From: an uncultured Eubacteriales bacterium
GTDB taxonomy: Bacteria > Acidobacteriota > Aminicenantia > Aminicenantales > Saccharicenantaceae
Reading direction: 5' to 3'
NCBI GenBank assembly: GCA_964525875.1
Contig: CAZGJS010000010.1
Location: 38,168-102,167 of the forward strand
Length of the DNA: 64,000 nucleotides
The stretch's first letter is position 1. The number at the start of each line of letters is the position of its first letter. The notes below the pieces were generated by a model that was given only the letters and a program-made list of their open reading frames with translations, had not been told where the DNA came from and ran no database searches. Made by a program: the position numbers and the translations under genes. Shown here one piece after another: positions 17,801 to 46,832 of this stretch.

Positions 17801-17948
17801 TGCCGCCACCCGTTTTGGCTGCGAGGGGGACCACCCGTTTCCCCCGGCCCCCGGGAACCAGTCCCGGCGGTTCCCCCATCGGTACCCGATGGTGCCCCCT
17901 CCGCTACGGGGGCTCCGGATGGTCCCCCTCACAGCCCGGGTGGCGGCA
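17801..17948 (-). repeat. Structured dispersed element family D, copy 1
   Basis: 12-bp terminal IR tgccgccacccg/cgggtggcggca. Core cccccggcccccgggaaccagtcccggcggt...cctccgctac shared with 35385 and 46570. Confidence 0.88.
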
Positions 17949-17990
17949 AAGAGGTCCCTTATGTACATCGCGGGGCTAAAACGTGCTGAA

Positions 17991-19466
17991 TCAGCTGCCG
18001 GGCTGCGTCTCATCCTCCCGAATCCGCGGCGCCATTGTCCACTTGGTGAAGCCGAAGACGGCCAGCATCACGACGGATAGATAGTTCATGAAGGCCCAGG
18101 GCAGGTAGGCGAAGGTCGAAACCCCCAGGGTCCCGGTGATGTAGACGCCGGCCATGCTCCACGGGATGAGGGGGACGATGATGCCGCCGCTCTCTTCGAT
18201 GATGCGCGACAGGTTCTTGGCGGCCAGGCCCTTTTTCTTGAAGATGGGTGCGAGGAGGTCGGCCGGCAGGATCATCGACAGATAGGAGCTCCCGGTGATC
18301 ATGGCCGAGAGGACGGCCGCGCCGATCGTCGTCAGGACGAGGCTCCAGACTTCGCGAGTGAATTTCATCACCCGCTCCAGAATGACGGCCAAACACCCCG
18401 TCCTCTGCATGATGCCGCCGAAGCCGAAGGCGGTGAAGGCGATGAGCTGGGTCTCCATCATGCTCATCATTCCGCCTTTGGCGAGAAGGCTGTCGACGAC
18501 CTCGACGCCCGTCCGAGCCGGGAGGCCCGAATTCATGGCCGTGGCCACGACCGTGAGGGGGATCTTCTGGACAAGGACGGCCAGGGTCGCCGCGACGAGG
18601 GAGGACAGGATCATGGCCGGGATGGTCGGCTTCTTGGCCACGGCGAAATAGAAGATGACGACCATGGGCAAGAGCAGGAGGATGCTGAAGCGGAAGTTCG
18701 ACTTGAGCGTGCGGAGGATGAGGTCGAGCGTCTCCGACTCGACCGCCGCCGCCCCGTACTTCAGGCCGACGAAGAAGTAGATGACGAGGCCCGCCAGCCA
18801 GGCCGGCACGGCCGACCACGTCATGTGCCTGATGTGGTCGAAAAGGTTCGACCCGGAGATGACCGTGGCCAGGTTGGGAATGTCGGAGAGAGGCGACATC
18901 TTGTCGCCGAAGTAGGCGCCGGCCACGACCGCCCCGGCCGCCGGGCCGAGGGGGATACCCAAGCCCATGGCGATGCCGATGAAGGCCACGCCCACCGTGC
19001 CGATCGTCCCCCACGAGGTCCCCGAGGCGATGGCGACGACCGACGAGACGAGGCAGGCCGTGGCCAGGAAGAACTTGGGCGAGATGAGCTTCAGGCCGTA
19101 GTAGATGACCATGGGGATGGTCCCGCTGGCCATCCAGGCGCCGATGAGGATGCCGACCGAGAGCATGATCAGGATGGCCGGCATGGCCTTGTGGATGCTG
19201 TCGACGATGCCCCGCTCCATGTCCTTCCACTTGAAGCCGAGGGCGAGACCCATGAAGGCGGTGATCGAGGCGGCGGCGACGAGGAGGACCTGGGCCTTGA
19301 TCTTGTAGACGCCGTAGCCGACGCCGAGGAGCAGGGCCATGGCGACGAGCGGAATGAGGGCGACGCCGAATTTCGGCGGTCGTCCCGGGACGGGGGCTTG
19401 AGGAGGCAACTGAGGCGATGTCGCCGCCGATGTCGGGGACTCCGTAATTGGGTTGCGGGAGGTCAT
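17991..19466 (-). CDS. nhaC: NhaC-family Na+/H+ antiporter or amino-acid transporter
   Basis: GTSWGTIGTVG, GAYFGDKMSPLSD, PLIPW, many TM helices. Confidence 0.88.
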   Translation of the reverse strand: MTSRNPITESPTSAATSPQLPPQAPVPGRPPKFGVALIPLVAMALLLGVGYGVYKIKAQVLLVAAASITAFMGLALGFKWKDMERGIVDSIHKAMPAILIMLSVGILIGAWMASGTIPMVIYYGLKLISPKFFLATACLVSSVVAIASGTSWGTIGTVGVAFIGIAMGLGIPLGPAAGAVVAGAYFGDKMSPLSDIPNLATVISGSNLFDHIRHMTWSAVPAWLAGLVIYFFVGLKYGAAAVESETLDLILRTLKSNFRFSILLLLPMVVIFYFAVAKKPTIPAMILSSLVAATLAVLVQKIPLTVVATAMNSGLPARTGVEVVDSLLAKGGMMSMMETQLIAFTAFGFGGIMQRTGCLAVILERVMKFTREVWSLVLTTIGAAVLSAMITGSSYLSMILPADLLAPIFKKKGLAAKNLSRIIEESGGIIVPLIPWSMAGVYITGTLGVSTFAYLPWAFMNYLSVVMLAVFGFTKWTMAPRIREDETQPGS

Positions 19467-19478
19467 CTTGGCCCTCTT

Positions 19479-20648
19479 CTAACTACTGAACGTGCCGCGG
19501 ACGAGGAGCCGCCCGCCGGCCATCATCCTTTTTCCCCGGGCGAAGACGTCGCTCAGGCCGAGATTGCCGTCGAGGACGATGAGGTCGGCGTCCCGGCCCG
19601 GCCCGATACGCCCCTTTTTCACGAGCTTGTAGAACTCGGCCGCATTGGTCGAAAAAAGCCGGGCGGCCGTTTCGGGCGGCAAGAGGCCCTTGCGAAGAAT
19701 GTCCCCGAATTTGCGGAAGAGGTCCTTTTCCGTGGCGATCGTCAGCCGGACGAGCCGGCCGCTCTCGTCGAAAACGGGGATACTGCCGTTGCTGTCCGAG
19801 CTGAGCATTATCCGGCCGAAAGGGAGGCCTTTTTCCCGGAAACGGGCGATGCAGTCTTCGAGACTCACCTCCGGGTCGGGCGGGACGGGCTCCGGCCCGA
19901 CGGTGATATCGACGGAACCGCCGCCGGCGACCCATTCGAGGCCCTCTTCGAAAAGCCCCGGGTTGCGGTTGATGTGGGTCGGGACGACCTGGCTCACCGG
20001 GATCTCCGTTTCGCGGACGAGCCGGAAGAGAAACTCGAGCCGGCGCTTGCCGTCGCCGAGATGGAAGTGGAGGACGCCGGCCTTCCCGCCGAGCATCCCC
20101 CCGACGCGGCATTCGGCCGCGAGCCCGGCGATCGCGTCGAACGTCGGCTGCGAGGAGCGGTGGTCGCTCACGGCGATCTCGCCCGCGCCGACGACCTTGT
20201 CGACGACGATGAGGTCGGAACGGACGCTCCCGGTCAGGGTCCGGACGGGGATCTCGTAGGATCCCGAATAGATGAATGTCGAGACGCCCTCGAGCTCGAG
20301 CGCCCGGGCCTTGGCCAAGAGGGAGGTCATGTGGCGGGTGACGCCGTCGGTCCCCAGACAGCCGATGACGGTCGTGACGCCGCTCGAGATGATATCTTCG
20401 ACCCTGATCTCGGGGGCGCGCGTCGCCGGGCCGCCTTCCCCTCCGCCCCCCAGGATGTGGACGTGGGGGTCGATGAGCCCGGGAAAGACGCGCTTTCCGG
20501 CCGCGTCCACGGTTTCGGCCTCGAAGCCGTCGAGCCGGATGCGGCCCGGTTCGGCTACGGCCTCGATCGCGCCTCCGGCGAGCAGGATGTCCCTCCGGCC
20601 GAGGGGCTCGGGGGCAAAGACGTCTCCGCCGCGAATCAGAGTGACCAT
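19479..20648 (-). CDS. iadA: Beta-aspartyl (isoaspartyl) dipeptidase
   Basis: PGLIDPHVHILGGGGEGG, GCLGTDG, GEIAVSDHRSS, PTHINR, SSDSNGS. Start 20648 after AAGGAGG. Confidence 0.93.
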   Translation of the reverse strand: MVTLIRGGDVFAPEPLGRRDILLAGGAIEAVAEPGRIRLDGFEAETVDAAGKRVFPGLIDPHVHILGGGGEGGPATRAPEIRVEDIISSGVTTVIGCLGTDGVTRHMTSLLAKARALELEGVSTFIYSGSYEIPVRTLTGSVRSDLIVVDKVVGAGEIAVSDHRSSQPTFDAIAGLAAECRVGGMLGGKAGVLHFHLGDGKRRLEFLFRLVRETEIPVSQVVPTHINRNPGLFEEGLEWVAGGGSVDITVGPEPVPPDPEVSLEDCIARFREKGLPFGRIMLSSDSNGSIPVFDESGRLVRLTIATEKDLFRKFGDILRKGLLPPETAARLFSTNAAEFYKLVKKGRIGPGRDADLIVLDGNLGLSDVFARGKRMMAGGRLLVRGTFSS

Positions 20649-20772
20649 GGGCGCCTCCTTACCCGGACGGGGCCTAAAGTAGCACGCCTGACGGGCGTTC
20701 GCAAGCGGCCGCGCCCCCCCCGGGGCGCTCTTTGAATTTCCCGGGCGGATTTTGTAGAATAGCCTCACGCCC

Positions 20773-21531
20773 ATGGCTACGTTCGAGGAAGAATTCAAGC
20801 GCATCGAGAAGTCCGTCGACCGCGTGACGCGGGCGTTTATTTTCCCTAAAAAAATCGACCTTCGCGGTAGCGAGAACTTCGTCCGAGAGGGCCCGAACAT
20901 CATCATCGGGAACCACATCGGGAGCTACAAGGACGTGGCCATCCTACTCCGGACCGTGCCGCGGATGATCTACTTCACCGCCAACAAGATGATCTTCGAT
21001 AAAAAAGAGGCGAGCGAGCTCGTCCTCCGTCACCTCCACCGGCACATGGGCAAGTTCGGCGGATTTGTCCATCTCATCCTCAACCCGCTTTACACCTACA
21101 TCGTGCACTTCGTGTCCGGGAACGCGGCCAAGGTCGGCTCCATACCCGTCGACATCTACGGCAGCAAGCGCGAGTCGATCCTCAAGTGCCAGGACTATCT
21201 GAGGAAGGGGAGGGCCGTCATCGCTCTGCAGGGCCGGGGCCGCGTCCATCCCAAGGACCCGAACCCCTACGTCAAGAGCTTCCGGCGGGGCGTCTCCATC
21301 ATGGCCTACAACCTGTTCAAACAGGAAGGCTTCACCGTCCCCGTTACGCCCATGTCGTTTTTCGGGACCCACATCATGTGGGGAGTGCCGGCGACGATCA
21401 AGGTCAACGTCGGGAAGCCGCTCTATATCAAAGACTACTGGGGAGGCGGCGAAGTGGAGACCGTCGAGAATTTCCGGATCGCCCTCGAACGGCGGGTTTC
21501 CGGACTCCTGTATGAAAGCTTATCGTGGTGA
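20773..21531 (+). CDS. Lysophospholipid/glycerol acyltransferase family protein
   Basis: NHIGSYKD catalytic-like motif and PlsC-like layout. Confidence 0.75.
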
Positions 21532-21547
21532 GAACGAGGAGGGAACC

Positions 21548-21733
21548 ATGGCACTCGAAGGACTTCTGATCGCCAAGGGCGAGAAAGACCTGTTCCTGCT
21601 GCCGAAGATGGCCAACCGCCACGGCCTGGTGGCCGGCGCGACGGGCACCGGGAAGACGGTTTCCCTCCAGGTCATGGCCGAGTGCTTCAGCCGCATCGGC
21701 GTCCTCGGCTCGATCCTCGGCGGCCGCCGCTAA
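21548..21733 (+). pseudogene. Internally deleted DUF853/YjgR (HerA-like) ATPase remnant
   Basis: [32 protein letters not shown] (Walker A) is fused directly to the family-like C-terminus LGSILGGRR. Only 61 aa. Confidence 0.8.
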
Positions 21734-21734
21734 G

Positions 21735-21847
21735 ATCAGAAGGGGTCAAACCTACTTTTTACGCCCTTCTTGGCCCGAAAAGCGTAAAAAGTAGGTTTGA
21801 CCCCATCCGGAAAAGCCCCGCAGAAATTCGGTTTGACCCCTTCTGAT
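21735..21847. repeat. GGGGTCAAACC palindrome (REP-like family C), three half-sites
   Basis: Perfect 23-bp IR 21742-21764/21782-21804. The left arm 21735-21752 is also perfectly complementary to 21830-21847. Confidence 0.85.
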
Positions 21848-21860
21848 TTTTTGTTATAAT
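21833..21860 (+). promoter_or_regulatory. Putative sigma70 promoter of the POT transporter
   Basis: TTGACC-N16-TATAAT with extended TG. The -35 box lies inside the repeat half-site. Confidence 0.6.
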
Positions 21861-21918
21861 CCCCCCGCGTTGAACGGACAACGTCATCCTCGAAAATCCC
21901 CCCCCAGGACGGTGAACC

Positions 21919-23601
21919 ATGTTTAAAGGACATCCCAAGGGCTTGTTCGTCGCCTTCTTCGCCAACATGGGCGAGCGCTTCGGCTTCTACACGATGATCA
22001 GCATCTTCGTCCTGTTCATGCAGGCGAAGTACGGCATGTCTGCGGCCGCCGCGGGCTCCATGTACGCGACCTTCCTGGTCGGCGTCTACATTTTCCCCCT
22101 GCTCGGCGGCTTCCTGGCCGACCGCTACCTCGGCTACGGCCGGACGATCAAGCTGGGCATCATCGTCATGTTCATCGGCTACGTCATGCTGGTTCTGCCG
22201 ACGGCGATGAACACCGGGTTCCCCCTCATCGTCGCCGCCCTGGCCGTCGTCGCGCTGGGCACGGGTCTATTCAAGGGCAACCTGCAGGCCCTCGTCGGCA
22301 ACCTCTACGACGACCCCAAGTACGCGGGCATGCGCGACCGGGCCTTCAACATCTTCTACATGGGCATCAACATCGGGGCCATGTTCGCCCCCTCGGCCTC
22401 CATGGCGGTGTGCAACTGGATCATGGGCAAGTCCAACTTCGTCTACGACGCCCGCATCCCGGCCCTGGCCAACGATTTCCTCAAAGGCAAGCTGGCCGAC
22501 GCATCCTCCTTCCTGACCATCGCCCAGGGTCAGGACGGTTCCGTCACCCTGGATACGCTGGGCCGCTTCGCCACGGACTACGTCAACACCCTGAGCAAGT
22601 CCTACCATTTCGGCTTCGGCGTCGCCTGTATCAGCTTGATCATATCCATGACTATTTTCTGGGCCTTCCGCAAGCACTACAAGACGGCCGCCATGTCCGC
22701 GCGCCAGAAGGCCAAGTCCGAGGCCCTCAAGTCCCAGGTCGTCGAGTTGACCCGGGAACAGACGCGCGAGCGGCTCGTCGCCCTCGGCCTCGTCTTCTTC
22801 GTCGTCATCTTCTTCTGGATGGCCTTCCACCAGAGCGCCGTGACCCTGACCTACTTCGCCAGGGACTACACCGTCCCGAGCGTGGGCAAGGCGACCAACC
22901 TCTGGTTCGACCTGACCGGCCTCCTGCCCGTCTTCCTGTCCGTCCTGGGGCTTGTCTTCCTCGTGAGGAAAGCCTCGGGAAGCCTGGCCCGCATCTTGGG
23001 GGGGGGCGCGTTCGTCGGATTCGGCATCCTGGCCTACCTCCGCTACAGCGGGTACGACGCGGTCAACCCGTTCCAGCCCCAGATGTTCCAGCACTTCAAC
23101 CCGTTCTTCATCGTCGTCCTGACGCCCATTGTCATCGGCATCTTCGGCTGGCTCAACCGGAAGGGCAAGGAGCCGACGGCGCCGCGCAAGATCGGCATCG
23201 GCATGCTCACGACGGCCGCGGCCTACGCCATCCTGATCGTGGCCTCGATCGGCTTGTTGAGCCCGAAGGCCCTCGGCGGCCTCGTCGCCCCGGCCGGGTC
23301 CCAGGTCTCCGTCTACTGGCTCATCTCGACCTATTTCATGCTGACGATCGCCGAGCTCCTCCTCAGCCCGATCGGGATCTCGTTCGTCTCGCGCGTTGCC
23401 CCGCCCAAGTACAAGGGCCTGATGCAGGGCGGCTGGTTCGCGGCGACGGCCGTCGGCAACTCCCTCGTCGGGGTCACCGCCTGGTTCTGGGAGCGGGTGC
23501 CGCTCTGGGCGGTGTGGGCTATCCTCGCCGGCGCCTGCATCCTGTCCGCCGGCTTCATCTTCTCGATCATGAAGCGGCTGGAGCGGGTCGCCCGGGCTTA
23601 G
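21919..23601 (+). CDS. POT/PTR family di-/tripeptide:H+ symporter
   Basis: GHPKGL, ERFGFY, GTGLFKGN, FYMGINIGA, AELLLSPIG. Confidence 0.93.
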   Translation: MFKGHPKGLFVAFFANMGERFGFYTMISIFVLFMQAKYGMSAAAAGSMYATFLVGVYIFPLLGGFLADRYLGYGRTIKLGIIVMFIGYVMLVLPTAMNTGFPLIVAALAVVALGTGLFKGNLQALVGNLYDDPKYAGMRDRAFNIFYMGINIGAMFAPSASMAVCNWIMGKSNFVYDARIPALANDFLKGKLADASSFLTIAQGQDGSVTLDTLGRFATDYVNTLSKSYHFGFGVACISLIISMTIFWAFRKHYKTAAMSARQKAKSEALKSQVVELTREQTRERLVALGLVFFVVIFFWMAFHQSAVTLTYFARDYTVPSVGKATNLWFDLTGLLPVFLSVLGLVFLVRKASGSLARILGGGAFVGFGILAYLRYSGYDAVNPFQPQMFQHFNPFFIVVLTPIVIGIFGWLNRKGKEPTAPRKIGIGMLTTAAAYAILIVASIGLLSPKALGGLVAPAGSQVSVYWLISTYFMLTIAELLLSPIGISFVSRVAPPKYKGLMQGGWFAATAVGNSLVGVTAWFWERVPLWAVWAILAGACILSAGFIFSIMKRLERVARA

Positions 23602-23608
23602 TCTTGCG

Positions 23609-24685: not shown

Positions 24686-24800
24686 GGCCCGACGATCATA
24701 TCGCGATGTTTCCCGGCCCGTCAACCCGGGGCCTAGCCATGCGTTGAAATGCGGCCGCGCCTGTATTAGAATGAGGGGCACAAGGACCGAGATGCCCGGA

Positions 24801-28861: not shown

Positions 28862-28863
28862 CC

Positions 28864-30547: not shown

Positions 30548-31134
30548 GGAAAGTCGCGCGCTGTGGTCTTCTCGTCCTCCTTCTTACCGCCTGTTTTTCC
30601 GTCCCGACCAAGCGGTACTTCCAGATCATCGCCACGGGCAAGGATGCCCAGCTCCATCCCAAGGTCGAAAAGGTCCTCTACATCGAGCCGGTCCGCGTCG
30701 ACCCCCTCTACGACGACTTCCGGGTCATCTACCGCGTCTCTATGTTCGAGCTCAAATATTACTCCTACGTGTTCTGGGCGAAGAAGCCGGACGCCCTCTT
30801 CCGCGCGGCGATGGGCGATTACCTCAACGAGAAGGAGGGCTTCACCCGGGTGACGCTCGACGTCCTCAAAGGTGACCCGGAGATCGTCCTGCGCTCGAGC
30901 GTCCGCCTCGTCGAGGAGATCGACAACCCCAAGGTCTGGTTTGCCAGGCTGGCCATGGACCTCGAGTTCTTGGAGTTCAAGTCCGGGAAGAGCCTCCTCC
31001 GGCACTCGTTCGACAGAAGGCTGCCTTTCCAGGTCCGCAAGGTCCGGCAGTTTCCGGCCATCCTCTCGAGGATCCTGACGGAGGAACTGGACATCGCCGT
31101 CCGGAAGCTGGCCGAGGTCACGGAAACGAAATAG
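30544..31134 (+). CDS. ABC-type transport auxiliary lipoprotein (PqiC-like)
   Basis: Lipobox LTAC, W..KP motif, last gene of the MCE operon. Confidence 0.8.
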   Translation: MRKVARCGLLVLLLTACFSVPTKRYFQIIATGKDAQLHPKVEKVLYIEPVRVDPLYDDFRVIYRVSMFELKYYSYVFWAKKPDALFRAAMGDYLNEKEGFTRVTLDVLKGDPEIVLRSSVRLVEEIDNPKVWFARLAMDLEFLEFKSGKSLLRHSFDRRLPFQVRKVRQFPAILSRILTEELDIAVRKLAEVTETK

Positions 31135-31137
31135 GCT

Positions 31138-33962: not shown

Positions 33963-35324
33963 TCAGCGCTCGGGCTCGTCACGGGCGGGGACGGTCGGCG
34001 CCTGGCGATGGCTGACACGCCGCATCAGCAGGAAGACCGGAAAACCGGCGGCGAAAAAGATCGCGCCGTAGAGAGCTTCGCGCGTCTGGGTCACAAGGAC
34101 GTTGACCGCGATGACGAGCATGAAGGCTACGAAGAGGAGGGGGAGCAGGGGATAGAGAGGTATCCGGTAGCCGGTGTAGACTTCGCCGGAGCGGCGCGCC
34201 TTGCGCCGGAGGATGAAGATCGAAGACGAAACGATAGCCAGGGTCATGGTGTCGAGGAACATGACGTAGTTGACGATGTTCTCGAATGTGCCCAGGAGGA
34301 AGATTGAGATGAGAATGATGGCGCCGAGGAAGAGGAGCCCGAAAGCCTGGGTCTGGGTTTTCGGGTTGACCTTCTGGAAAACGGCCGGCAGGGTCCGGTC
34401 CTCGGCCATGGAGTAGTACACTCGTGGGATCTGCATCAGGGTGACGTTGAGGAATCCCATGGCCGAGAGGAAGATGGCCAGGGAGACGACGAGCCGGCCT
34501 GTCTCGCCGAAGGTGACACGCGCCGTTTCGGCGGCGACGAGTTTGGCCGCTGCGATGCCGGGAACGCCGAGGGTCTTGACGTAGGCCACGTTGATGGTCA
34601 GGTAACAGGCCAGGACGATGAGGATGCCGAAGAAGATGGCCCGGGGGACGTTGCGTTTGGCGTCGCGGACGTCGGCCCCGAAGTTGATGGTGTTCTGGTA
34701 GCCGCCGTAGGCGTAAAAAACGTAGATGAACGAAACGCCCAGGGCCAGGATCCAGGGCCGGTCGAGGGGCAGGGCGGACGGGCCCGCGGGCGCTTTCTTG
34801 GACAGGAAAGCCGCCGCCGTGAGGAGGCCGATCATGCCGACCTTCAGGAGGCTGAGGACGTTCTGGGCCCAGGCGCCCGTCTTGATGCCGAGGTAGTTGA
34901 TGACGAGCAGGACGAGGATGAGGACGACGGCGGTCGCCTGGACGGTCGCCCGTCCCGGGGTGGTGGCGGGGAAGATGATGGGCGTCAGGTATTCGGCGCC
35001 GATCAGGGTTACGGCCGCCGCACCGGCCCCGTTGAGGATGACGACGTTGGTCCAGTTGAGCATGAAGGCCAGGCCCGAGCTGTAATTCTCGGCCACGACC
35101 TTGTAGTAGCCGCCCGGCTTGGCGAAACGTCCGCCTATCTCGGCGAAGGTCAGGGCGCCGATGAAGCTGATGAGACCGCCCAGGGCCCAGGCGGCGTAAA
35201 AGAGTGCGGGCGTGCGGGCCGCGGCGGCGACCATGGCCGGCGTCCGGAAGATGCCGATGCCGATGATCAGGCTGACGACGATCATCGTCGCGTCGAAGGT
35301 GGTCAGTTTCGCCTTGATCGCCAT
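33963..35324 (-). CDS. APC-family amino acid permease
   Basis: IIGIGIFRTP, FAEIG, YAYGGY, NVPRAI, about 12 TM helices. Confidence 0.92.
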   Translation of the reverse strand: MAIKAKLTTFDATMIVVSLIIGIGIFRTPAMVAAAARTPALFYAAWALGGLISFIGALTFAEIGGRFAKPGGYYKVVAENYSSGLAFMLNWTNVVILNGAGAAAVTLIGAEYLTPIIFPATTPGRATVQATAVVLILVLLVINYLGIKTGAWAQNVLSLLKVGMIGLLTAAAFLSKKAPAGPSALPLDRPWILALGVSFIYVFYAYGGYQNTINFGADVRDAKRNVPRAIFFGILIVLACYLTINVAYVKTLGVPGIAAAKLVAAETARVTFGETGRLVVSLAIFLSAMGFLNVTLMQIPRVYYSMAEDRTLPAVFQKVNPKTQTQAFGLLFLGAIILISIFLLGTFENIVNYVMFLDTMTLAIVSSSIFILRRKARRSGEVYTGYRIPLYPLLPLLFVAFMLVIAVNVLVTQTREALYGAIFFAAGFPVFLLMRRVSHRQAPTVPARDEPER

Positions 35325-35384
35325 GCGGCCTCCTTCACGAAGACCTCATTGTACTTGGCGGTGTGCGTTTTACAAGGGGGCAGC

Positions 35385-35534
35385 TAACGCCACCCTCTTT
35401 AGCTGGGACGGGGGACCATCCATTTCCCCCGGCCCCCCGGGAACGAGTCCCGGCGGTTCCCCCGCCGCAAGCGGCGGGTCCCCTTCCGCTACAGGGTCTC
35501 TGGATGGCCCCCCATCCCGGCACGGGTGGCGTTA
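35385..35534 (-). repeat. Structured dispersed element family D, copy 2
   Basis: 11-bp terminal IR taacgccaccc/gggtggcgtta and the same conserved core as copy 1. Confidence 0.88.
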
Positions 35535-35549
35535 AACAGGCCTCGACCT

Positions 35550-36767
35550 TCAGGCGAGTTGTTTGACGGCCCGTTCGATGCGCTCCAGGGCCTCGACGAG
35601 AAGGGCCCGGGGACAGCCGAAGTTGATGCGGACGAAGCCGGCGGCCTCGGAGCCGAACAGCGCGCCGTCGCTGAAATAAACGCGGGCCTTCTTCAGGAAA
35701 AAGTTGTTGAGCGCGGCAGGCTCGAGGCCGAGACCCCGGCAGTCGAGAAGGGCGAGGTACGTCCCCTCGGGTCGGACGAGGCGGATCCCGGGGAGACGCT
35801 CCTGGAAGAACCTCTCCATGAGTTCGACGTTGGCCTCGAGGTAGGGCAGGAGCTCCCCGAGCCAGTCCTCGCCATGGGTGTAGGCCGCTTCGAAACCGAC
35901 GATACCGAAGACCTGGCCGAGCTCGAAGCCGGCCCGCTCCGTCTCGTCCTTGAAGGCCTCGAGGAGCTTGGGATTGGAGGCGATCACCACCGCCGTGGAC
36001 AAGCCCGGGATGTTGAAGGTCTTGCTCGGGGCGATGCAGGTCAGCGTCCGGTTCGCCAGCTCCGGAGAAAGCGCGGCCAGGACGTGGTGCCGGTGGCCGC
36101 GATAGACGAGGTCGTGGTGGATCTCGTCGGAAATGATCAGGAGGTCGCGCGCGACGGCGATGCGGCCGAGGGCCTCGAGCTCTTCCCGCGACCAGACGCG
36201 GCCAACGGGGTTGTGGGGGCTGCACAGTATGAGCGTGCGGCTGCCGCTGTCGATCTTTCTCTCGAGGTCGTCGAGGCCCATCGTGTAACGGCGGCCGTCG
36301 AACCGGAGGGGGTTGCGGACGACGCGACGGCCGTTGTTCTCGATCGCGTAATAGAACGGATGATAGACCGGCGTCTGGATGATAATCCCCTCGCCCGGCT
36401 TGGTCAAGGCGCGGACGCAGTAGTTGAGGGCGGGGACGACGCCCGGCGATTTGGCCATCCAGTCCTTGCGCACTTCCCAGCCGTGACGCCTGCCGAGCCA
36501 GTCGACGGCGGACTTCCAGAATGACGGGGGGATGAGGGGATAGCCGTAGATGCCGTGTGCGGCGCGTCGGCTGATGGCTTCGACAACCGCGGGCGGCGCC
36601 TCGAAGTCCATGTCGGCCACCCACATCGGGATGGCGTCCTCGACCTTGAGGACCTTGCGGGGATAGACCCACTTCAGGGATTCGGTGCCCGTCCGGTCGA
36701 CGACCTTGTCAAATGGGGACACAATACCAATTTCCGAATTTCCCTTTGTTCCCTTCAGTTCAGGCAT
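35550..36767 (-). CDS. MalY/PatB family PLP-dependent C-S lyase/aminotransferase
   Basis: PMWVADMDF, LCSPHNPVGRVW, SDEIH, APSKTFNIPG, RINFGCPR. Confidence 0.93.
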   Translation of the reverse strand: MPELKGTKGNSEIGIVSPFDKVVDRTGTESLKWVYPRKVLKVEDAIPMWVADMDFEAPPAVVEAISRRAAHGIYGYPLIPPSFWKSAVDWLGRRHGWEVRKDWMAKSPGVVPALNYCVRALTKPGEGIIIQTPVYHPFYYAIENNGRRVVRNPLRFDGRRYTMGLDDLERKIDSGSRTLILCSPHNPVGRVWSREELEALGRIAVARDLLIISDEIHHDLVYRGHRHHVLAALSPELANRTLTCIAPSKTFNIPGLSTAVVIASNPKLLEAFKDETERAGFELGQVFGIVGFEAAYTHGEDWLGELLPYLEANVELMERFFQERLPGIRLVRPEGTYLALLDCRGLGLEPAALNNFFLKKARVYFSDGALFGSEAAGFVRINFGCPRALLVEALERIERAVKQLA

Positions 36768-36853
36768 GCTCTAGCCTCTCGATTCTCAAATTCGAATTAT
36801 CCCTGAGCCTGAAACAGCCTAACGGGAAATTCGGAAATTGGTATTGTGTCCCC
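36715..36853. repeat. Family A MITE-like element with perfect 30-bp IRs
   Basis: ggggacacaataccaatttccgaatttccc (36715-36744) and its exact reverse complement (36824-36853), with a 79-nt spacer. Confidence 0.88.
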
Positions 36854-36856
36854 GAT

Positions 36857-37804: not shown

Positions 37805-37822
37805 GTGTGAACTCCGTTTTCC

Positions 37823-39826: not shown

Positions 39827-39879
39827 TGCGGTCTCCTTTCTAAGTTCGTTTGTATCGGGCGAAACTCAGGCGGTGAGAC

Positions 39880-41808
39880 TCAGGGTGTCTTCGAAAACCT
39901 CGATAGGACGTCGTTGTTGATGCGGAGGAAGGCGTCGTAGTTGATCCGGACCTTCTTCTCAGTGCGGGCCTTGGCCATGTAGGACTGCAGGAACTTGTTC
40001 TTTTCCTGCTCGAGCAGGGTGTCCCGCTCCGTCGCCTTGACCTTATCGAATTCCTCGCGGCTGACTTCCTTCTTCTCGAGGACGCGGAAGAGGGCGTAGC
40101 CCGCGTCGACGGCGAGCGGCTCGCTCGCCTGCTTGAGGGGCAGGCCGAAGACGAGACGGTCGACCTCGGGGCTCTCGCCGACGAGGGTCAGGTACTGCTC
40201 TTTCTTATGGGCCTCGACGAATTGGTACTCGAGCTTGAGCTTGGGGGCCTCCGCGCTCCAGTCGTCCTTGAGGGACGCCCGGACTCCGCGGAGCTTTTCC
40301 AGGGCCTTCTCCTTTTTCAGGCCGTCGAGGACGTCCTTCTCGACCTGGTCGCGGACCTCCTCGAACTTCGCCGGCCGTTCGGGCTCGACGGCCTGGAGCT
40401 GGGCCAAGGCTTCGCCGGCGTAGGTGAAGACCGGCGCCGAGATCTCCTTCGCCTTGAGGCCGAAGAGGGCTTCACTCACGGCGCCCGCGCTGTCGAAATC
40501 GCCCAGAGCGTCGCCCTTCTTGAGAGCGCCCGTCGAGCTCACTTTGAGCCCTTCCTTTTGGGCGGCGACGTCGAGGTTCTTCTCCTTGCGGGCCGATTTC
40601 TCGAGGCGCTGGATCCTCTCGGCGACCAGGGCCCGCGCCTTCTGGTCCCCGAGGATGCCCTTGATCGTGGCGCTCACCTCGGCCAGCGGCTTGGTCACGG
40701 CCGGCGCCTTCTCGGTGACCTTGAAGACGGCCGCCCCGCCCTCGGTCTCGACGACGTCGGACACGCCGTCCTTGTCGAGCTTCTCGACGGCCGCGGTCTC
40801 CACGGCGGTCAGGGATTTCCAGTCGAAGAGCCCCCAGTCGCCGCCGGTCGCGGCCTTGTCATCCTTGGAGAAGGCCTTGGCCAAGCCGGCGAAGTCCTCG
40901 CCGCCCGTGGCCCTCTTCCGGACGTCGCGCGCCTGGGCCAGGACGGACTCCCGGTCGGCGGCGGTGAAGGGCAGCCAGACCCGGCTGGCCCGGACCTTAT
41001 CGGGCTCCTGGAATTGGGCCATGTTGTCCTTGTAGTACTTGTCGATCTCGGCGTCCTTGACCGCGACCTCTTTCTTGAGGTCTTCGGTCTTCACGACGAG
41101 GTAGTCGGCGGTCCGCTTTTCGGGGATCCTGTACCCCGCGGCGTTCTTGTCGAAGTGGGCCCGGAGCTCGGCCTCGGCCGGCTTTTCGGTGACCTCGACC
41201 TTGGCCGTATCGGCGACGAGGTACTCGATCTTGGCCGAGTCGTTCTGCTTCCGGTAGCCTTCCCAGACCGCTTCGTCGGCGACGATGATGCCGGCCGTCA
41301 GGACGCGGACGACCTTGCCGATGATGACGTCCTGCCTCAGGCCGTCCTCGAAATCCCCGAGCGGGATGCGGTTGTAGTCCAGGACCCGCTTGTATTCCTC
41401 GAAGCCGATGAACTGCCCGTCCCTCTGGAACGCGGGATAGGCGACGATCTTCGCCCGGACTTCTTTGTCGGTCGCCCGCAGGCCCATGTCCGAGGCTATC
41501 TGGAGGAGGAGCCTCTGTTGAACGAGCTGTTCCAGGGTCTGCTGGGGGACGCCGAGCTGCTGAATGAGGTTGGCGTTGAGGTCGCCGAACTGCTTCTGCA
41601 TGGCCTCGAGCCGCGAGCGGAGGGCCTGGAAATATTCGTCGGAGGAGATCCTCTCGCCGCCGACGTTGGCCAGCGTGTCGGCCCTGGTTTCCTCGCCGAC
41701 CCGGCCCGCGCCGCCCCAGATGGCGAAGATGGCGACGATGAACGTTGCAACGACGATCCACATGATGGGTTTGAGCGACTTCACGTTGCGTCTCATGGTC
41801 TTCAGCAT
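39880..41808 (-). CDS. PpiD-like SurA-N/parvulin peptidyl-prolyl isomerase
   Basis: MLKTMR start, N-terminal TM, GEDFAGLAKAFSKD..GGDWG parvulin motif. Confidence 0.88.
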   Translation of the reverse strand: MLKTMRRNVKSLKPIMWIVVATFIVAIFAIWGGAGRVGEETRADTLANVGGERISSDEYFQALRSRLEAMQKQFGDLNANLIQQLGVPQQTLEQLVQQRLLLQIASDMGLRATDKEVRAKIVAYPAFQRDGQFIGFEEYKRVLDYNRIPLGDFEDGLRQDVIIGKVVRVLTAGIIVADEAVWEGYRKQNDSAKIEYLVADTAKVEVTEKPAEAELRAHFDKNAAGYRIPEKRTADYLVVKTEDLKKEVAVKDAEIDKYYKDNMAQFQEPDKVRASRVWLPFTAADRESVLAQARDVRKRATGGEDFAGLAKAFSKDDKAATGGDWGLFDWKSLTAVETAAVEKLDKDGVSDVVETEGGAAVFKVTEKAPAVTKPLAEVSATIKGILGDQKARALVAERIQRLEKSARKEKNLDVAAQKEGLKVSSTGALKKGDALGDFDSAGAVSEALFGLKAKEISAPVFTYAGEALAQLQAVEPERPAKFEEVRDQVEKDVLDGLKKEKALEKLRGVRASLKDDWSAEAPKLKLEYQFVEAHKKEQYLTLVGESPEVDRLVFGLPLKQASEPLAVDAGYALFRVLEKKEVSREEFDKVKATERDTLLEQEKNKFLQSYMAKARTEKKVRINYDAFLRINNDVLSRFSKTP

Positions 41809-41812
41809 GGGT

Positions 41813-42355
41813 TCACCTCGAGTGGGTTGCGGTCGGCCGCTTGGGCCGTCCTGCGCGTTCCCGGCGTGCTCGTTCCTTGTCGAAAAGAGGGCGGAGTTTC
41901 TTGTAGGTCGTGTCCAGGTCCTCGATGAAGACCCGCGTCGCCCCGACGAGGGGCATGAAATTGGCGTCCCCCGTCCAGCGGGGGACGACATGGAGATGGT
42001 AGTGCCCGGCGACCCCCGCTCCGGCGCTCGCGCCCAGATTCATGCCGGTGTTGAACCCGTGGGGAGCGTAGCTCGCGCGGAGGACGCGGAGGGCGACCTG
42101 GAGCAGGTCGGCTAGTTCGGCCCGCTCGTCGGGGCGGGCCTCGGCGAAGTCCGCCACGTGCCGCTTGGGAGCGATCAGGATGTGGCCGGGCGTGTAGGGG
42201 TACCTGTTCAGCAGGATGAAGTTGCGGCGGCCCCGGTAGAGGACGGCCGCGGAGCGGTCGTCGCGGCTCTTCAGGGCCTCGCAAAAAATGCAGCGTTTCA
42301 TGCTCAGGGCTTTGCGGACGTAGTCGGCTCTCCAGGGCGCGGAGATATAGCGCAT
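41813..42355 (-). CDS. HIT family hydrolase
   Basis: APWR, CIFC, LNRYPYTPGH, HYHLHVVPRW. Confidence 0.92.
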   Translation of the reverse strand: MRYISAPWRADYVRKALSMKRCIFCEALKSRDDRSAAVLYRGRRNFILLNRYPYTPGHILIAPKRHVADFAEARPDERAELADLLQVALRVLRASYAPHGFNTGMNLGASAGAGVAGHYHLHVVPRWTGDANFMPLVGATRVFIEDLDTTYKKLRPLFDKERARRERAGRPKRPTATHSR

Positions 42356-42630
42356 TACTTGTTGATCAGCTCCTTGAGGAGCTTGCTCGGCTTGAAGTAG
42401 AGGACCTTTTTCGGCGGGACCTTCACCGGCTCGCCCGTCCGGGGATTGCGCCCGGCGCGCGAGGTCCGTTTGCGGAAGCGGAAACTGCCGAAACCGCGGA
42501 TCTCGATCTCTTCGCCCCTGAGGATGGCCTCGCGGATCGTCTCGAAGAACAGGTTCACGCCCTCTTCGGCTTCCTGCTTCGGGATGCTCATCTCCTGGGA
42601 GATCTTGTTGATCAGATCGGCCTTAATCAT
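42355..42630 (-). CDS. ihfB: Integration host factor beta / HU family DNA-binding protein
   Basis: IEIRGFGSF, GRNPRTGE, FKPSKLL. Follows rpsA. Confidence 0.85.
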   Translation of the reverse strand: MIKADLINKISQEMSIPKQEAEEGVNLFFETIREAILRGEEIEIRGFGSFRFRKRTSRAGRNPRTGEPVKVPPKKVLYFKPSKLLKELINK

Positions 42631-44371
42631 GGGAGTCCTCCTTTTTGGTCCTCTTCTTCGGAGCGCTGAAGCCTTTCAGCTGGTCTTTCATGATGTCGCC
42701 GAGGGTCATCCGGTCGTTCTGCGTGTCCATGAAGCGCTGGAAATCCTGCTTCTCTATGTCGTACAGCGCTTGCTTGAAGCTCAGGGAGATCTTCTTGGCC
42801 TTGGGGTTCAGCCGGATGATCTTGGCGTTCCGCTCGTCGCCGACGGCGAAGCCGTCGGAGGGTTTCTCGAGCTTTTTCTCGTCGAGCTCCGAGGTGAAGA
42901 TGACCCCCTCGATGCCCGGGATGATCTCGACGAAGGCGCCGAAGTCCGTCAGGCGGACGATCTTGACCTTGACGATGTCGCCGGCTTTCTGGCGGCTGAA
43001 GAAATCCTCCCAGATGTCCCCCTCGAGCTGCTTTATCCCCAGGGAGACCTTCTGCCTGTCGATGTCGATGTTGAGGACGAGGGTCTCGACCTCCTGGCCG
43101 GGCTGGAGCTTCTCGGACGGGTGCTTGACCTTCTCCCAGCTGATGTCGGAGATGTGGACGAGCCCTTCGATGCCCTTCTCGACCTCGACGAAGGCGCCGA
43201 AATCGGTCAGGCTGGTCACTACGCCCTTGACCCGGGCGCCGACACCGTGCTTCTGCTTGAAGGTCTCCAGAGGATGGGGAGAGACCTGCTTGAGGCCGAG
43301 GGAGATGCGCTTCGTCGTCGGGTTGACGTCGAGGATGGTTACGGTGACCTCCTGGCCCGGGCTCAGGACTTTCTTGGGATGGACAAGCTTGCGGGACCAG
43401 GTCAGGTCGGAGATGTGAACAAGCCCTTCGACGCCCTTCTCGAGCTCGACGAAAGCGCCGAAGTCGGTCAGGCTCGAGACTTTCCCGGTGATTTTCTGCC
43501 CGGCCTGGTATTTCTCGGCGATGTTCGCCCAGGGGTCGGGCGTGAGCTGCTTCAGCCCGAGGGAGATCTTCTCGTCCCTCTCGTTGAAGTCGAGGACGAC
43601 GACCTCGACCTGCTGGCCGGCGCTCAGGTGCTCGGCCGGATGGGTGCCCTTGCCCCAGGAGATGTCCGAGATGTGGAGAAGGCCCTCGATGCCGCCGAGG
43701 TCGATGAAGGCGCCGAAGTTGGTCAGGGACTTGACCTGCCCTGTGAGCTTCTGCCCCTTGACCAGGTTCCCGAACACCCGCTTCATTTTCTCCTCCCGCT
43801 CGTCCTGGAGGAGAAGCTTGCGCGAAAGGACGGCGTTATCGGTCCTCCGGTCGTATTTCATGACCCGGAACTTGAAGCTCTTCCCGATGAGGGCGGAAGC
43901 GTCCCTAACCGGTCTGATGTCGACGTGGGATTCGGGCAGGAAGGCCGGGATGCCGACGTCGACGTTGAACCCGCCCTTGGTCCTTTCCGTGATCGTACCC
44001 GTGACCGTCAGGCCGTGCTCGAAGGCCTGGCCCAGGTTCTCGACGGCGCGGAGGCCGTCCGCGCGCTTCTTGGACAGAACGAGGTAGCCGTCCTTGATGT
44101 CGGTATTCTCGAGCATGGTCTCGACTTCGCTGCCGGGCCGCAGTTCCGCGAGCGCCTTGAGGTCGGTGAAATCCTCGTTGGGGATGAGGCCTTCGGTCTT
44201 GAAGCCGATATCCACGAGGACATGGGTCGGGGTCTTTTTGATGACCTTCCCCTTGAGGATCTTCCCCATGGTGATTTCCGTGGTACTGAATTGGTAGCGG
44301 TCCAGCAGGTTTTCGTAGTCTTGCGACGACATCTTGTCGTCGTGGTCCGGCTGTTTGGTCGACTCGGTCAT
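42623..44371 (-). CDS. rpsA: 30S ribosomal protein S1
   Basis: Repeated S1 domains (FGAFV...EGLVHISD, RISLGLKQ). Confidence 0.96.
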   Translation of the reverse strand: MTESTKQPDHDDKMSSQDYENLLDRYQFSTTEITMGKILKGKVIKKTPTHVLVDIGFKTEGLIPNEDFTDLKALAELRPGSEVETMLENTDIKDGYLVLSKKRADGLRAVENLGQAFEHGLTVTGTITERTKGGFNVDVGIPAFLPESHVDIRPVRDASALIGKSFKFRVMKYDRRTDNAVLSRKLLLQDEREEKMKRVFGNLVKGQKLTGQVKSLTNFGAFIDLGGIEGLLHISDISWGKGTHPAEHLSAGQQVEVVVLDFNERDEKISLGLKQLTPDPWANIAEKYQAGQKITGKVSSLTDFGAFVELEKGVEGLVHISDLTWSRKLVHPKKVLSPGQEVTVTILDVNPTTKRISLGLKQVSPHPLETFKQKHGVGARVKGVVTSLTDFGAFVEVEKGIEGLVHISDISWEKVKHPSEKLQPGQEVETLVLNIDIDRQKVSLGIKQLEGDIWEDFFSRQKAGDIVKVKIVRLTDFGAFVEIIPGIEGVIFTSELDEKKLEKPSDGFAVGDERNAKIIRLNPKAKKISLSFKQALYDIEKQDFQRFMDTQNDRMTLGDIMKDQLKGFSAPKKRTKKEDSHD

Positions 44372-44437
44372 GGCACATTGCTCCTGAAAAGGAAATTCTG
44401 AGGCGTCCCTTCTCCAAGGGCCCGGAAAGAACGATTC

Positions 44438-44466
44438 ATACTATACAAGAAACATCGCGTTGTCAA
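44438..44466 (-). promoter_or_regulatory. Putative sigma70 promoter of rpsA
   Basis: Minus strand TTGACA-N17-TAGTAT. Confidence 0.65.
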
Positions 44467-44498
44467 CTCTAAGTCAAGGCCTTGTCTACACTTAGAGA

Positions 44499-45047
44499 CT
44501 AAGCGTCGACGGCCTTTTCCTCCTGCAGGATCTTAGCGATCTCCTCCTCGGAGGGAAGCTCGTCGAGGCCGTTGAGCCCCAGGTAGAGAAGGAACTCGTC
44601 GGACGTCCTGTAGACGAGCGGGCTTCCCGGTGCCTTCTTCCGTCCGACGATCTTGATCAGGCCTTTTTCGAGGAGCGTCTTCAGCGAGGAGGTCGAATCG
44701 ACGCCCCGGATCGCCGAGACCTCGGCCTGGGTCACCGGCTGGCGGTAGGCGATCGCGGCCAGTGTCTCGAGCCCGGCCGACGTTAGCCTGTTCTTGCGCT
44801 CGATCTGGAGGAGGCGTCGGATCTCCCGGTCGAAGGCCGGCTTGGTCGAGAACAGCCAGCCGCCTCCGACATGGATGATCTGGATGCCGCGGCTGTCCGC
44901 AGCGGTGTCGGCGACGAGATCGTCGACGGCGGACTGGATGTCGGCGGCCGGGACGCCCTCGAGCACGGCTTGGATCCGTTCCAAGTTCAGGGGCTCCTGG
45001 GAGACGAAGATGAGCGACTCGACGATGTTCTTGAGGGGGCTATTCAT
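44499..45047 (-). CDS. scpB: SMC-Scp complex subunit ScpB
   Basis: LETLAAIAYRQPVT, IRGVDS, YRTSDEFL. Confidence 0.95.
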   Translation of the reverse strand: MNSPLKNIVESLIFVSQEPLNLERIQAVLEGVPAADIQSAVDDLVADTAADSRGIQIIHVGGGWLFSTKPAFDREIRRLLQIERKNRLTSAGLETLAAIAYRQPVTQAEVSAIRGVDSTSSLKTLLEKGLIKIVGRKKAPGSPLVYRTSDEFLLYLGLNGLDELPSEEEIAKILQEEKAVDA

Positions 45048-45837
45048 GATGATCCGTCCTGTGGGCGTCCTTACGGAGCCAGACCCGGATGGTCTGGAAG
45101 AGCTCGTCCTGGACGGCGACCGCCACCCGGGACTTGACCAGCTCGAGGATGCAGAAAAAGGAGACCAGGGCCTCCTCGAGCGAGGCGTTGGCCTCGAAAT
45201 ACTCGAGGAAGTCGAACATGTGCCGTTCCCGGAGGAGGCCGACGAGTTCCTTCATCTTGCCCTCGATCGAGACGTCCCGGCCGCGGATCGTCCGGGTTTC
45301 GTCGGCGGACCGTCGCTTCATCATGAGGAAGAACGACTCGGACAGCTCGAAGAGCGACAGCTCCACGGGTTCGAGCTCGCTTTCGCCGCGGAGAGGCGGG
45401 ATGAAATTTCTCTTCCACTGGAGGATCTGGACGTCCTCCCGTTCCCGGAGGAGGGAACAGGCGGCCTTGATCTTCTGGTATTCGAGGAGGCGGTTGACCA
45501 GGACCAGGCGCGGGTCCTCGTGCTCGGCCAGGTCGGTCTCGCGGGGCAGGAGCATCTGAGACTTGATGTAGATCAGGAGTGCCGCGACGAACAGGAACTC
45601 CGCCTCGCGGTCGAGATTGATCTCGGTCTTGCGGTCGAGATATTCGAGGTAGTTGCGGGTGATGGCGGCGATGGGGATGTCGTGGATGTCGATCTTCTTC
45701 TTGCGGATGAGGAAGAGGAGGAGGTCCAGGGGGCCTTCGAAGACGTCCAGGCGGACCTGGTAGCCCTCCGGCGTCTCCGCGGACGGCGAGGCCGGAGTCT
45801 CCTCGGTCGGCAGGGTTTCGGCGGCTGGTTCGGGCAT
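45040..45837 (-). CDS. scpA: Segregation and condensation protein ScpA
   Basis: FEGPLDLLLFLI, KSQMLLP, RLLEYQ, ILELVK. Confidence 0.95.
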   Translation of the reverse strand: MPEPAAETLPTEETPASPSAETPEGYQVRLDVFEGPLDLLLFLIRKKKIDIHDIPIAAITRNYLEYLDRKTEINLDREAEFLFVAALLIYIKSQMLLPRETDLAEHEDPRLVLVNRLLEYQKIKAACSLLREREDVQILQWKRNFIPPLRGESELEPVELSLFELSESFFLMMKRRSADETRTIRGRDVSIEGKMKELVGLLRERHMFDFLEYFEANASLEEALVSFFCILELVKSRVAVAVQDELFQTIRVWLRKDAHRTDHHE

Positions 45838-45838
45838 G

Positions 45839-46519
45839 CTAGAAAAAAACGAGGGTCAGGATGACGATCTGAAGGGGCCGGATGATGATGTCGAGGACTC
45901 CGATCGAAATCAGGGCGACGACGATGATGAAACCGTAGGGCCTGAGGCGGTCGTATTTCGCCGCGGCCTGGTCGGAGAGAACGCCGGCCAGGACGCCGCT
46001 CCCGTCGAGGGGGGGCACCGGGATGAGGTTGAAGACGGCCAGATAGGTGTTGACGAGGACGGCGTAGAACAGGATGAGGGCCAGCCCCTCGAGCGGATAG
46101 AAGCCCCGGGGAAAAGGCTGGCGTTCGATGAGGAAGTTCCTGAGGAACGCGGACGTGCCGGGATTCATCGCTTTCATCAGCAGGATGAGGGCGAGCGAGG
46201 CGGCCGCTGCGATCAGGTTGGCGGCCGGGCCGGAGAGGGAGATCCAGAGGTTGTCGCGGCGAGGATGCCTGAGGTTGCGGGGATTGACCATGACCGGCTT
46301 GGCCCAGCCGAAGGCCGGGGCGCCGATGGCGACGAGGATGAGCGGGAGGAGGACGGTGCCGAAGGGGTCGATGTGGGCCAGGGGATTCAGGGACACCCGG
46401 CCCATGGCGGCCGCGGTGGGATCGCCGAATTTTGAGGCCGTCCAGGCGTGGGACGCCTCATGGATGGTGATGGCGAAGAGAAAGGCGAAGAGGCTGATGA
46501 CGATCGAAAGGATATCCAT
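45839..46519 (-). CDS. Site-2 protease (M50) family protein
   Basis: HEASH, NPLAHIDPFG, FNLIPVPPLDG. Confidence 0.93.
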   Translation of the reverse strand: MDILSIVISLFAFLFAITIHEASHAWTASKFGDPTAAAMGRVSLNPLAHIDPFGTVLLPLILVAIGAPAFGWAKPVMVNPRNLRHPRRDNLWISLSGPAANLIAAAASLALILLMKAMNPGTSAFLRNFLIERQPFPRGFYPLEGLALILFYAVLVNTYLAVFNLIPVPPLDGSGVLAGVLSDQAAAKYDRLRPYGFIIVVALISIGVLDIIIRPLQIVILTLVFF

Positions 46520-46569
46520 GGGTTATCCGAACATCTTTTATAGCACACAAAACGGAATCCGTAAACTAT

Positions 46570-46832
46570 GACGCCGCCCGTTTTGGCAGCGATGGGGACC
46601 ATGCATCTCCCCCGGCCCCCCCGGGAACCAGTCCCGGCGGTCGGCCAGGGAATCTTCCAATATTGCGAATCTTCTGAGGCCTGATATCCAAGGCTCGACT
46701 CAGATATTTCCCAGAAGTGCGGCTCCGGGCCGCTCCGCCGCACTTCTGATGGTCGCTTCTCAGAATCCGCTCCCTGCCGCCCCTCCGCTACGGAGGCTAT
46801 GCATGGCCCCCATCACTGCCCGGGCGGCCGTC
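46570..46832 (-). repeat. Structured dispersed element family D, copy 3, carrying module E
   Basis: Same stems and core as copies 1 and 2. The variable slot is expanded to ~138 nt (46642-46779) and includes the module seen at 1781. Confidence 0.88.

Follow-up and report, generated by a model that had tools for sequence, protein, structure and literature searches.

What kind of element is a structured repeat of about 150 nt that recurs between the genes of an uncultured Aminicenantes bacterium? We addressed this question in a window of 64,000 nt (C10:38168-102167 of the source genome G000, which comprises 3.13 Mb in 28 contigs with 62% G+C). A prediction made from the letters of this window had noted three copies of such an element and had offered two interpretations, an undescribed structured noncoding RNA (ncRNA) or 3'-untranslated region (3'-UTR) element, or a non-autonomous mobile element of single-stranded DNA (ssDNA). 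Our results demonstrated that the structured repeat family is real, and it is apparently new to description. Of the two interpretations the mobile element fits better, and the best reading of the element is a gene-less, multi-copy, horizontally spreading intergenic repeat that is structured and resembles miniature inverted-repeat transposable elements (MITEs).

The three copies were found where the original prediction had placed them, and their functional (sense) strand is the minus strand of the window (Table 1). The compensatory differences quoted for the terminal stem (tgccgccaccc/gggtggcggca vs taacgccaccc/gggtggcgtta), the second stem (ggcTgcgaG/CtcacAgcc vs ggcAgcgaT/AtcacTgcc) and the inner stem (accatCca/tgGatgg vs accatGca/tgCatgg) were all correct, and the copies share an identical core in a minus-strand alignment. 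A regular expression for the core found 33 exact cores in G000, each preceded by GTAGCGGA(G/A)GGG at 33-48 nt upstream, or at 150-169 nt in three copies. Together with a covariance model built from 30 short G000 copies, it gave 50 element loci in this genome, namely 47 forward matches (60.9-167.6 bits), two long copies (35-42 bits) and one long copy found by the regular expression only; one extra 31-bit match of the model was left out of the count. The sense strand scored 85-168 bits and the opposite strand 27-53 bits. The predicted count of three is the total for the window only, and the genome holds about 50 copies.

The element is an imperfect palindrome of 150-200 nt, in which long arms (P0-P3) are capped by an asymmetric, near-invariant three-way junction. 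The arms are unrelated in sequence between families, yet they are always paired, and one G000 subfamily carries an additional outer stem (CTTCTCCC.../...GGGAGAAG). The junction is made up of a helix P4, a purine junction strand, a variable hairpin P6, a hairpin P7 and a further G-run. P4, in which a C-run pairs with the second G-run, was 96.2% paired in an alignment of 73 copies and covaries (TCTCTCC/GGAGAGA, TCGCCCCT/AGGGGCGA, GGCACA/TGTGCC). The junction strand has the consensus N-U-(A/C)-G-C-G-G-A-R-G-G-G-G, and P6, four of whose seven pairs covary, has loops that include G(CUUG)C and GAGA. P7, GGAACC[GNCGGGACN]GGUUCC with the loop G-N-C-G-G-G-A-C-N, is invariant across Aminicenantes. In copies from bacteria of the candidate phyla radiation (CPR) it carries the compensatory changes GAAACC/GGTTTC (5 copies) and GGGACC/GGTCCC (1 copy), which prove the helix. 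The C-run was also 88.7% paired with the first G-run, with one covarying pair, and this pairing may represent an alternative conformer. Two further core pairings, P5 (GCGG/CCGN) and CGGGA/UCCCG, were rejected as weaker (82.5% and 88.3% paired, most outer pairs being disrupted). The original prediction had described a near-invariant core that includes GTAG at a hairpin foot; the branched core is indeed almost unchanging, whereas the GTAG motif varies (GTAG, CTAG, GTCG, ATCG, ATAG). In a Saccharicenans-labelled genome (L098:3041-3378), two tandem partial units of about 107 nt, each consisting of a 5' arm, core and spacer with the 3' side of P7 replaced, precede a complete unit that is without the first G-run.

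RNAalifold predicted 44 pairs from the 30 G000 copies, 22 of them with compensatory changes. The refined structure was scored on the 73 copies, which are diverse and come from other genomes. The results showed that 95.0% of cells were paired and that both sides had changed at 28 of the 39 pairs; in the long arm helix P2/P3, every one of the 18 pairs covaried. The covariation score was 0.478, compared with 0.139 for shuffled alignments (none of 500 reached 0.478) and at most 0.084 for slid partners. Copy 1 folded with -117.5 kcal/mol as RNA (z = -8.5, equalled by 0 of 200 shuffles) and with -64.6 kcal/mol as DNA (z = -8.6), and its complement with -105.8 kcal/mol. These findings indicate that the fold is conserved with real covariation, in the larger alignment as well.

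Rfam 15 gave no match at threshold in the whole window. Near copy 1, only chance Rfam matches of 14.4 and 9 bits appeared at E values up to 10, and eight loci of other subfamilies gave two sub-threshold microRNA-like matches. Searches of the literature on Aminicenantes repeats, ncRNA and MITEs brought up no description of such an element, which is weak evidence given partial coverage. An origin from 5S rRNA, suggested by a likeness to loop A of E. coli 5S rRNA, was rejected: the 5S model had 0 matches in G000, and the 5S rRNAs of three related genomes (G025, G027, G039) do not resemble the core.

The two strands of the element are not equivalent. In the arms, G.T pairs outnumbered A.C pairs by 42:6 in the 30 G000 copies and by 85:22 in the 73 copies from other genomes, so that the predicted strand bias of the wobble pairs, with window-minus polarity, held in both sets. 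Counted by copy, G.T exceeded A.C in 41 copies and the reverse was true in 7. When the core was removed, the minimum free energy of the sense arms was below that of the complement in 87 of 104 copies, with a mean difference of 5.1 kcal/mol, and in CPR copies the sense arms folded better in 17 of 23. The bias was equal for neighbouring genes of either direction relative to the element, and it held in every gene-orientation class. It implies that the folded form is a single strand with the polarity of the window's minus strand.

Relatives were searched in a sample of 41 genomes of the order, in which matches at E <= 0.001 were counted. The element was present in 34 of these, namely G000, 24/24 genomes of its genus and 9/16 from other families of the order, some with tens of matches; under stricter filters, 0 of 150 other genomes across the phylum carried it. 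The 117 matching stretches were mostly labelled Candidatus Aminicenantes. A CPR genome, G191 (704 kb, 41% G+C), had 23 matches on at least 8 contigs, about one copy per 30 kb, and further records with non-Aminicenantes labels (G192, G193 and G194) had 15, 36 and 4 matches. When 41 genomes around G191 were searched, G191 included, 8 had matches, 1 to 22 each; genomes of this CPR host clade measure 0.6-0.8 Mb. Viral contigs, searched as a check on carriage by phages, gave 0 matches to the element. The asymmetric 70-nt core is near-identical in Aminicenantes (62% G+C, 3-4 Mb) and CPR bacteria.

In G191, a conserved repeat of about 270 nt surrounds the main CPR subfamily, which sits at its apex (C11, C12, C8 and C13; for example L235 and L236). 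On the 3' side, the flank terminates in a G-rich tract (GGGGGTTGGGGTGGAGGGAGCGG), and a C-rich tract with partial complementarity to it is present on the 5' side. In two G191 copies, the P7 loop contains a small inserted hairpin.

All 50 copies in G000 are intergenic. Gene orientations were taken from our own open reading frame (ORF) caller for the 47 classifiable copies, the other 3 being at contig ends. Relative to the element, the upstream and downstream genes were opposite/same at 15 copies, same/opposite at 13, opposite/opposite at 10 and same/same at 9, and within tandem gene pairs 9 copies were co-oriented and 10 anti-oriented. Copies often adjoin stop codons, with a median of 18 nt to a convergent stop. 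The original prediction had placed each window copy shortly after a minus-strand stop codon, and they do lie 42, 15 and 33 nt past the ORFs 17991..19466, 35550..36767 and 46866..48824, but in the orientation survey this proved to be a local coincidence and no rule of the family. Among the 117 loci from other genomes, the largest recurring neighbour family occurred in 6 and is housekeeping. Contigs of two RNA libraries contain the element, and these contigs carry no strand or end information. Its depth relative to the flanks was about 8-10x in the RNA libraries and about 25-34x in DNA runs.

These results bear on the first of the two interpretations. A structured ncRNA family, either a trans-acting small RNA or a UTR cis element with a protein- or ligand-binding core and a stem for stability, would account for the G.U bias of the sense strand, the branched core with its purine-rich junction strands and its P6 loops, the strong covariation and the presence in RNA-library contigs. 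We nevertheless consider it unlikely. The copies show no orientation bias towards their neighbours, and those that are anti-oriented have the same strand bias; a shared promoter is lacking, the 5' flanks being unique; and about 50 copies with presence/absence polymorphism lie beside unrelated genes. The lower relative depth in RNA than in DNA libraries and the lack of an Rfam match also speak against it. A CsrA sponge, suggested by four conserved GGA motifs, was ruled out because CsrA was over the cut-off in 0 of the 41 genomes. For a 3'-UTR or other cis-regulatory RNA in particular, the four orientation classes (15/13/10/9), the unrelated flanking genes and the context-independent strand bias give no support.

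The element differs in presence between relatives. The original prediction had proposed a search for empty sites, and these were found for copies 1 and 2. Copy 1 is present at the orthologous site in G008, G013 and G023; it is absent from G017 and G001, where the convergent stops lie 5-6 nt apart, and a contig of run X16 also lacks it. Copy 2 is missing from G017 and from one contig of the DNA run X7, and G008 has it in truncated form; the empty allele of this copy carries a small GGCGGC-TAA-GCCGCC hairpin. The greater length of copy 3 is due to a nested insertion of a second repeat family, which also accounts for its low score of 35.4 bits. A composite of the same type occurs at G000 C14:46976-47255, with 92% identity over the insert, and since both hold the same nested insert the composite was copied as a unit. 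In G000, flank complementarity of at least 8 nt was found in 10 of the 50 copies, against about 0.9 expected, and one copy lies inside a 16-bp, terminator-like stem that holds the stop codon upstream as well as A and T tracts at the flanks.

The second repeat family is a hairpin of about 72 nt with the stem CAGAAGTGCGGC.../...GCCGCACTTCTG. It has about 14 other sites in G000, and about 72 nt of the copy 3 insert belongs to it. At least two insertions of it into the junction/P6 region are known, that of the G000 composite and one of opposite orientation in L087. The copy 2 site (35325-35550; L173, L174) is a hot spot that holds extra DNA of about 3.2 kb in G023 and about 4.3 kb in G001, encoding ORFs of 1025-1045 amino acids.

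Could such a palindrome arise and spread without any enzyme of its own? In this explanation, templated correction from one arm to the other, or conversion between copies, keeps the arms paired, and the repeat spreads when GC-rich hairpins recombine or when template switching occurs between them; the core and hairpin may serve the host as a terminator, a protein site or a structural site. Orthologous copies do differ mainly by compensated pairs, with some transversions (TGCCGCC/GGCGGCA vs TGACGCC/GGCGTCA). Some flanks are complementary past the shared element, one including a coding stop codon, and copies sit at gene ends, where terminator hairpins lie. The small hairpin in the copy 2 empty allele, the tandem partial units of L098 and the failure to find a transposase or a target-site duplication point the same way. 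However, an enzyme-free palindrome predicts no preference for G.T on a fixed strand, yet 41 copies against 7 show one, and it leaves unexplained both the near-identity of the asymmetric 70-nt core between Aminicenantes and CPR bacteria and the patchy cross-phylum distribution. We regard it as an improbable explanation, on a par with the ncRNA.

Pfam families that might mobilise or read the element were tested one at a time in the 41 genomes: Y1_Tnp (PF01797), RVT_1, TnpB (PF07282), IS110 (PF01548), CsrA and RRM_1. Y1_Tnp was found in 34 genomes; the 7 without it all carry the element (G006, G015, G016, G017, G025, G035 and G038, with up to 47 matches), and the 7 without the element all have Y1. 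RVT_1 was found in 7 genomes, G000 and G025 not among them, and TnpB in none. IS110 occurred in 12 and was absent from the copy-rich G025, G017, G008, G013, G023 and G011. RRM_1 occurred in all 41, with or without the element, and an RRM-domain RNA-binding protein was set aside as a candidate reader for not being discriminating.

The prediction had also likened the GTAG at a hairpin foot to the repetitive extragenic palindrome (REP) substrates of Y1 HUH nucleases. A REP-like element, or one like the REPIN composites, mobilised by a REP-associated tyrosine transposase (RAYT) that reads this GTAG would agree with the GTAGCGG at the foot of P4 in most copies, with the five Y1_Tnp-domain ORFs of 200-350 amino acids matched in G000, and with Y1_Tnp in 34/41 related genomes. 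Y1 genes do not track the element, however, as the 7/7 and 7/7 counts above show; G191 has 23 element matches and no Y1 match, and no Y1 gene adjoins the element in the 117 loci. The variation of GTAG and the conserved centre with variable arms, the reverse of a REPIN, add to this. The REP/RAYT explanation is largely refuted, and we give it very little credence.

No autonomous version with a gene inside the core was found in G000 or in the 117 loci, and no parent insertion sequence was found. Among 121 cores, the 5' motif lay within 70 nt in 96 and within 300 nt in 3, and was not found by regular expression in 22, which are variants or truncations. A co-transferred partner was sought by tblastn of all 1449 G191 ORFs against G000, and the top matches inspected were all housekeeping by Pfam (MreB, LemA, release factor, DprA, FtsZ, L11, sigma-70, RRM); the two best, with about 68% and 63% identity, we take to be EF-Tu and RecA from size and context only. 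G191 contains three pairs of a reverse transcriptase (RT) and bAvd gene that resemble diversity-generating retroelements (DGRs), at C7:56908-58307, C11:21729-23082 and C10:34102-35525; they are the only multi-copy gene pair annotated there and are not shared with the Aminicenantes hosts. The C11 pair has an element copy about 2.8 kb away on each side, possibly by chance.

Several known families invite comparison. REPs are described (PMC3733652) as 20-40 bp long and as carrying at one end a tag, GTAG or CGTC, that is unpaired, the GTAG type flanking RAYT genes. Like REPs and REPINs, the element is a small, gene-less, GC-rich extragenic palindrome with tens of copies, often at gene ends, and has a GTAG motif beside a stem in most copies. 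It differs in being a branched unit of 150-200 nt whose GTAG is variable and internal, at the junction, without Y1 co-occurrence; compared with a REPIN, its anatomy is reversed, the centre being conserved and the arms variable.

Bacterial MITEs with long palindromic bodies, such as Correia/NEMIS and ERIC, keep terminal inverted repeats and make target-site duplications. The element resembles them as a non-autonomous intergenic hairpin repeat of about 100-200 nt that varies between strains, but its termini wholly differ between subfamilies while the centre is invariant, and it has neither a detectable target-site duplication nor a parent insertion sequence that we could find. With IS200/IS605-type transposons and palindrome-associated transposable elements (PATEs) it would share strand-specific folded DNA hairpins as a substrate, and the lack of a detectable target-site duplication. 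Unlike IS200/IS605 elements and TnpB omega-RNAs, however, it occurs where TnpB is missing (0/41 genomes) and is uncorrelated with Y1, and it forms one closed hairpin and not two end hairpins. The rarity of reverse transcriptase (7/41 genomes, and none in G000 or G025) separates it from retrons, group II introns and DGR templates, and the absence of the DEDD recombinase gene from several copy-rich genomes separates it from IS110 bridge RNAs.

Two further comparisons concern DNA sites that are read when folded. Integron attC sites have short conserved boxes at the base and a variable apex, and lie in co-oriented arrays next to cassettes. Like attC, the element is an imperfect palindrome with features of recognition by structure on one folded DNA strand, in which sequence varies and pairing is kept; unlike attC, its apex is invariant and its base variable, and its copies are scattered in both orientations. 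Single-strand origins of the ssoA type on rolling-circle plasmids are folded stretches of about 150-300 nt that function in a single orientation, are read by a host enzyme and contain a short conserved loop motif, CS-6 (TAGCGT). The TAGCGG of the element resembles this motif over 5 nt only, and these origins are single plasmid elements, whereas the element has about 50 chromosomal copies without a replication orientation bias.

Taken together, we put the chances at about even that the element is mobile but non-autonomous, and that it multiplies by way of a folded intermediate of the sense strand, read at its invariant core by a putative factor. The intermediate would be single-stranded and of sense polarity, and ssDNA is favoured over RNA because most host genomes are without a reverse transcriptase (none in 34 of the 41 genomes sampled, among them G000 and G025). 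The invariant core would serve as the handle for a trans-acting factor, with the arms needing only to close the structure, and insertion would occur preferentially at the ends of genes and in hairpins already present, for example terminators. Any Y1/RAYT transposase, TnpB, IS110 recombinase or reverse transcriptase that Pfam models detect is excluded as this factor.

Several observations weigh against such a mobile element. Flank direct repeats of the 50 copies were no longer than in a null set of mismatched flanks, so that no target-site duplication was detected; a few adjacent A/T-rich repeats in the flanks, such as TTTATTT and AAAGAAA, could be genuine. No clean pair of empty and filled alleles delimits the ends of the element, and at copy 1 the hairpin of the filled allele is accompanied by 23 + 42 nt of sequence, unique in the genome, that is missing from the empty alleles. 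Part of the flank-complementarity signal is the outer stem of one subfamily. IS200/IS605-type single-strand transposons are biased to one replication strand. This bias is not seen in the complete genome G025, whose origin and terminus lie, judged by GC skew, near 1.55 Mb and near 3.8 Mb: the sense strand was leading in 11 and lagging in 11 among the matches listed (22 of 40). Because the copies share descent, counts of strand bias over copies overstate their independence. Arm-to-arm DNA copying or conversion between copies could yield compensated pairs without selection on a folded strand. Finally, the Pfam, neighbour and tblastn searches found no transposase or other partner, and mobilisation by a dedicated factor is what we infer.

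The invariant, G-rich three-way junction could be a self-sufficient module, either a nucleic-acid catalyst or a structure that imitates an origin or nick site and recruits a housekeeping enzyme, for which primase, RNA polymerase, a relaxase-like nuclease and a resolvase are possibilities. We hold this to be quite doubtful, more so than the ncRNA or the enzyme-free palindrome. If true, a gene-less element could use the module to copy itself and to cross phyla without a transposase of its own, which would be a new mode of bacterial DNA mobility.

The positions of the features in the window are given in Table 1. A third repeat in the window is a near-perfect palindrome of about 70 nt (GGGGTCAAACCTACTTTTTACGC ... 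GCGTAAAAAGTAGGTTTGACCCC) with 3 other loci in G000 and many matches in G013, G017 and G023. Elsewhere in G000, one copy of the element lies beside a small RRM-domain gene (C1:130-286 and C1:432-623), and the same pairing in G008 (C23) and G017 (C171) indicates that this copy is old and syntenic.

Table 1. Copies of the element, their parts and neighbouring ORFs, and other repeats in the 64,000-nt window
Feature	Position	Strand	Description
Copy 1, full element	17794..17951	-	Hairpin 17801-17948; 149.8 bits
Copy 1, core	17841..17912	-	Positions counted on the sequence; helices backed by covariation alignments
Copy 1, P4	within core 17841..17912		CCCCC/GGGGG; G-rich strand precedes the 3' side of P4
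Copy 1, junction strand	17894-17907	-	GUAGCGGAGGGGG
Copy 1, variable hairpin P6	about 17876-17892	-	
Copy 1, hairpin P7	17854-17874	-	GGAACC[GCCGGGACU]GGUUCC
Copy 1, neighbours	17484..17777; 17991..19466	+; -	Convergent ORFs; the second of the Na+/H+ antiporter family
Copy 2, full element	35380..35536	-	Hairpin 35385-35534; core about 35426-35497; 131.3 bits
Copy 2, neighbours	35550..36767; 33963..35324	-; -	Tandem ORFs; aminotransferase; amino-acid permease
Copy 3, composite element	46559..46839	-	Hairpin 46570-46832; 35.4 bits
Copy 3, core (split)	46609-46641 and 46780-46797	-	
Copy 3, nested insertion	46642..46779	-	138-139 nt; takes the place of the variable hairpin P6; contains the second repeat family
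Copy 3, neighbours	46866..48824; 45839..46519	-; -	Amidohydrolase; M50 peptidase
Second repeat family	1781-1852		Hairpin of about 72 nt
Third repeat	21738-21808		Palindrome of about 70 nt

Small dispersed palindromes such as REPs and MITEs are common, and the usual explanation for them is a known transposase that reads conserved ends. In the family described here this logic is reversed, since the ends are free and a branched centre of 70 nt is held almost constant. The reader of this core, if found, may prove to be a new machinery for mobilisation or a host enzyme put to a new use, and it may also account for a wider set of similar repeats. In practical terms, such repeats break metagenome assemblies and mark sites of gene gain and loss, and covariation screens would misread them as structured RNAs.

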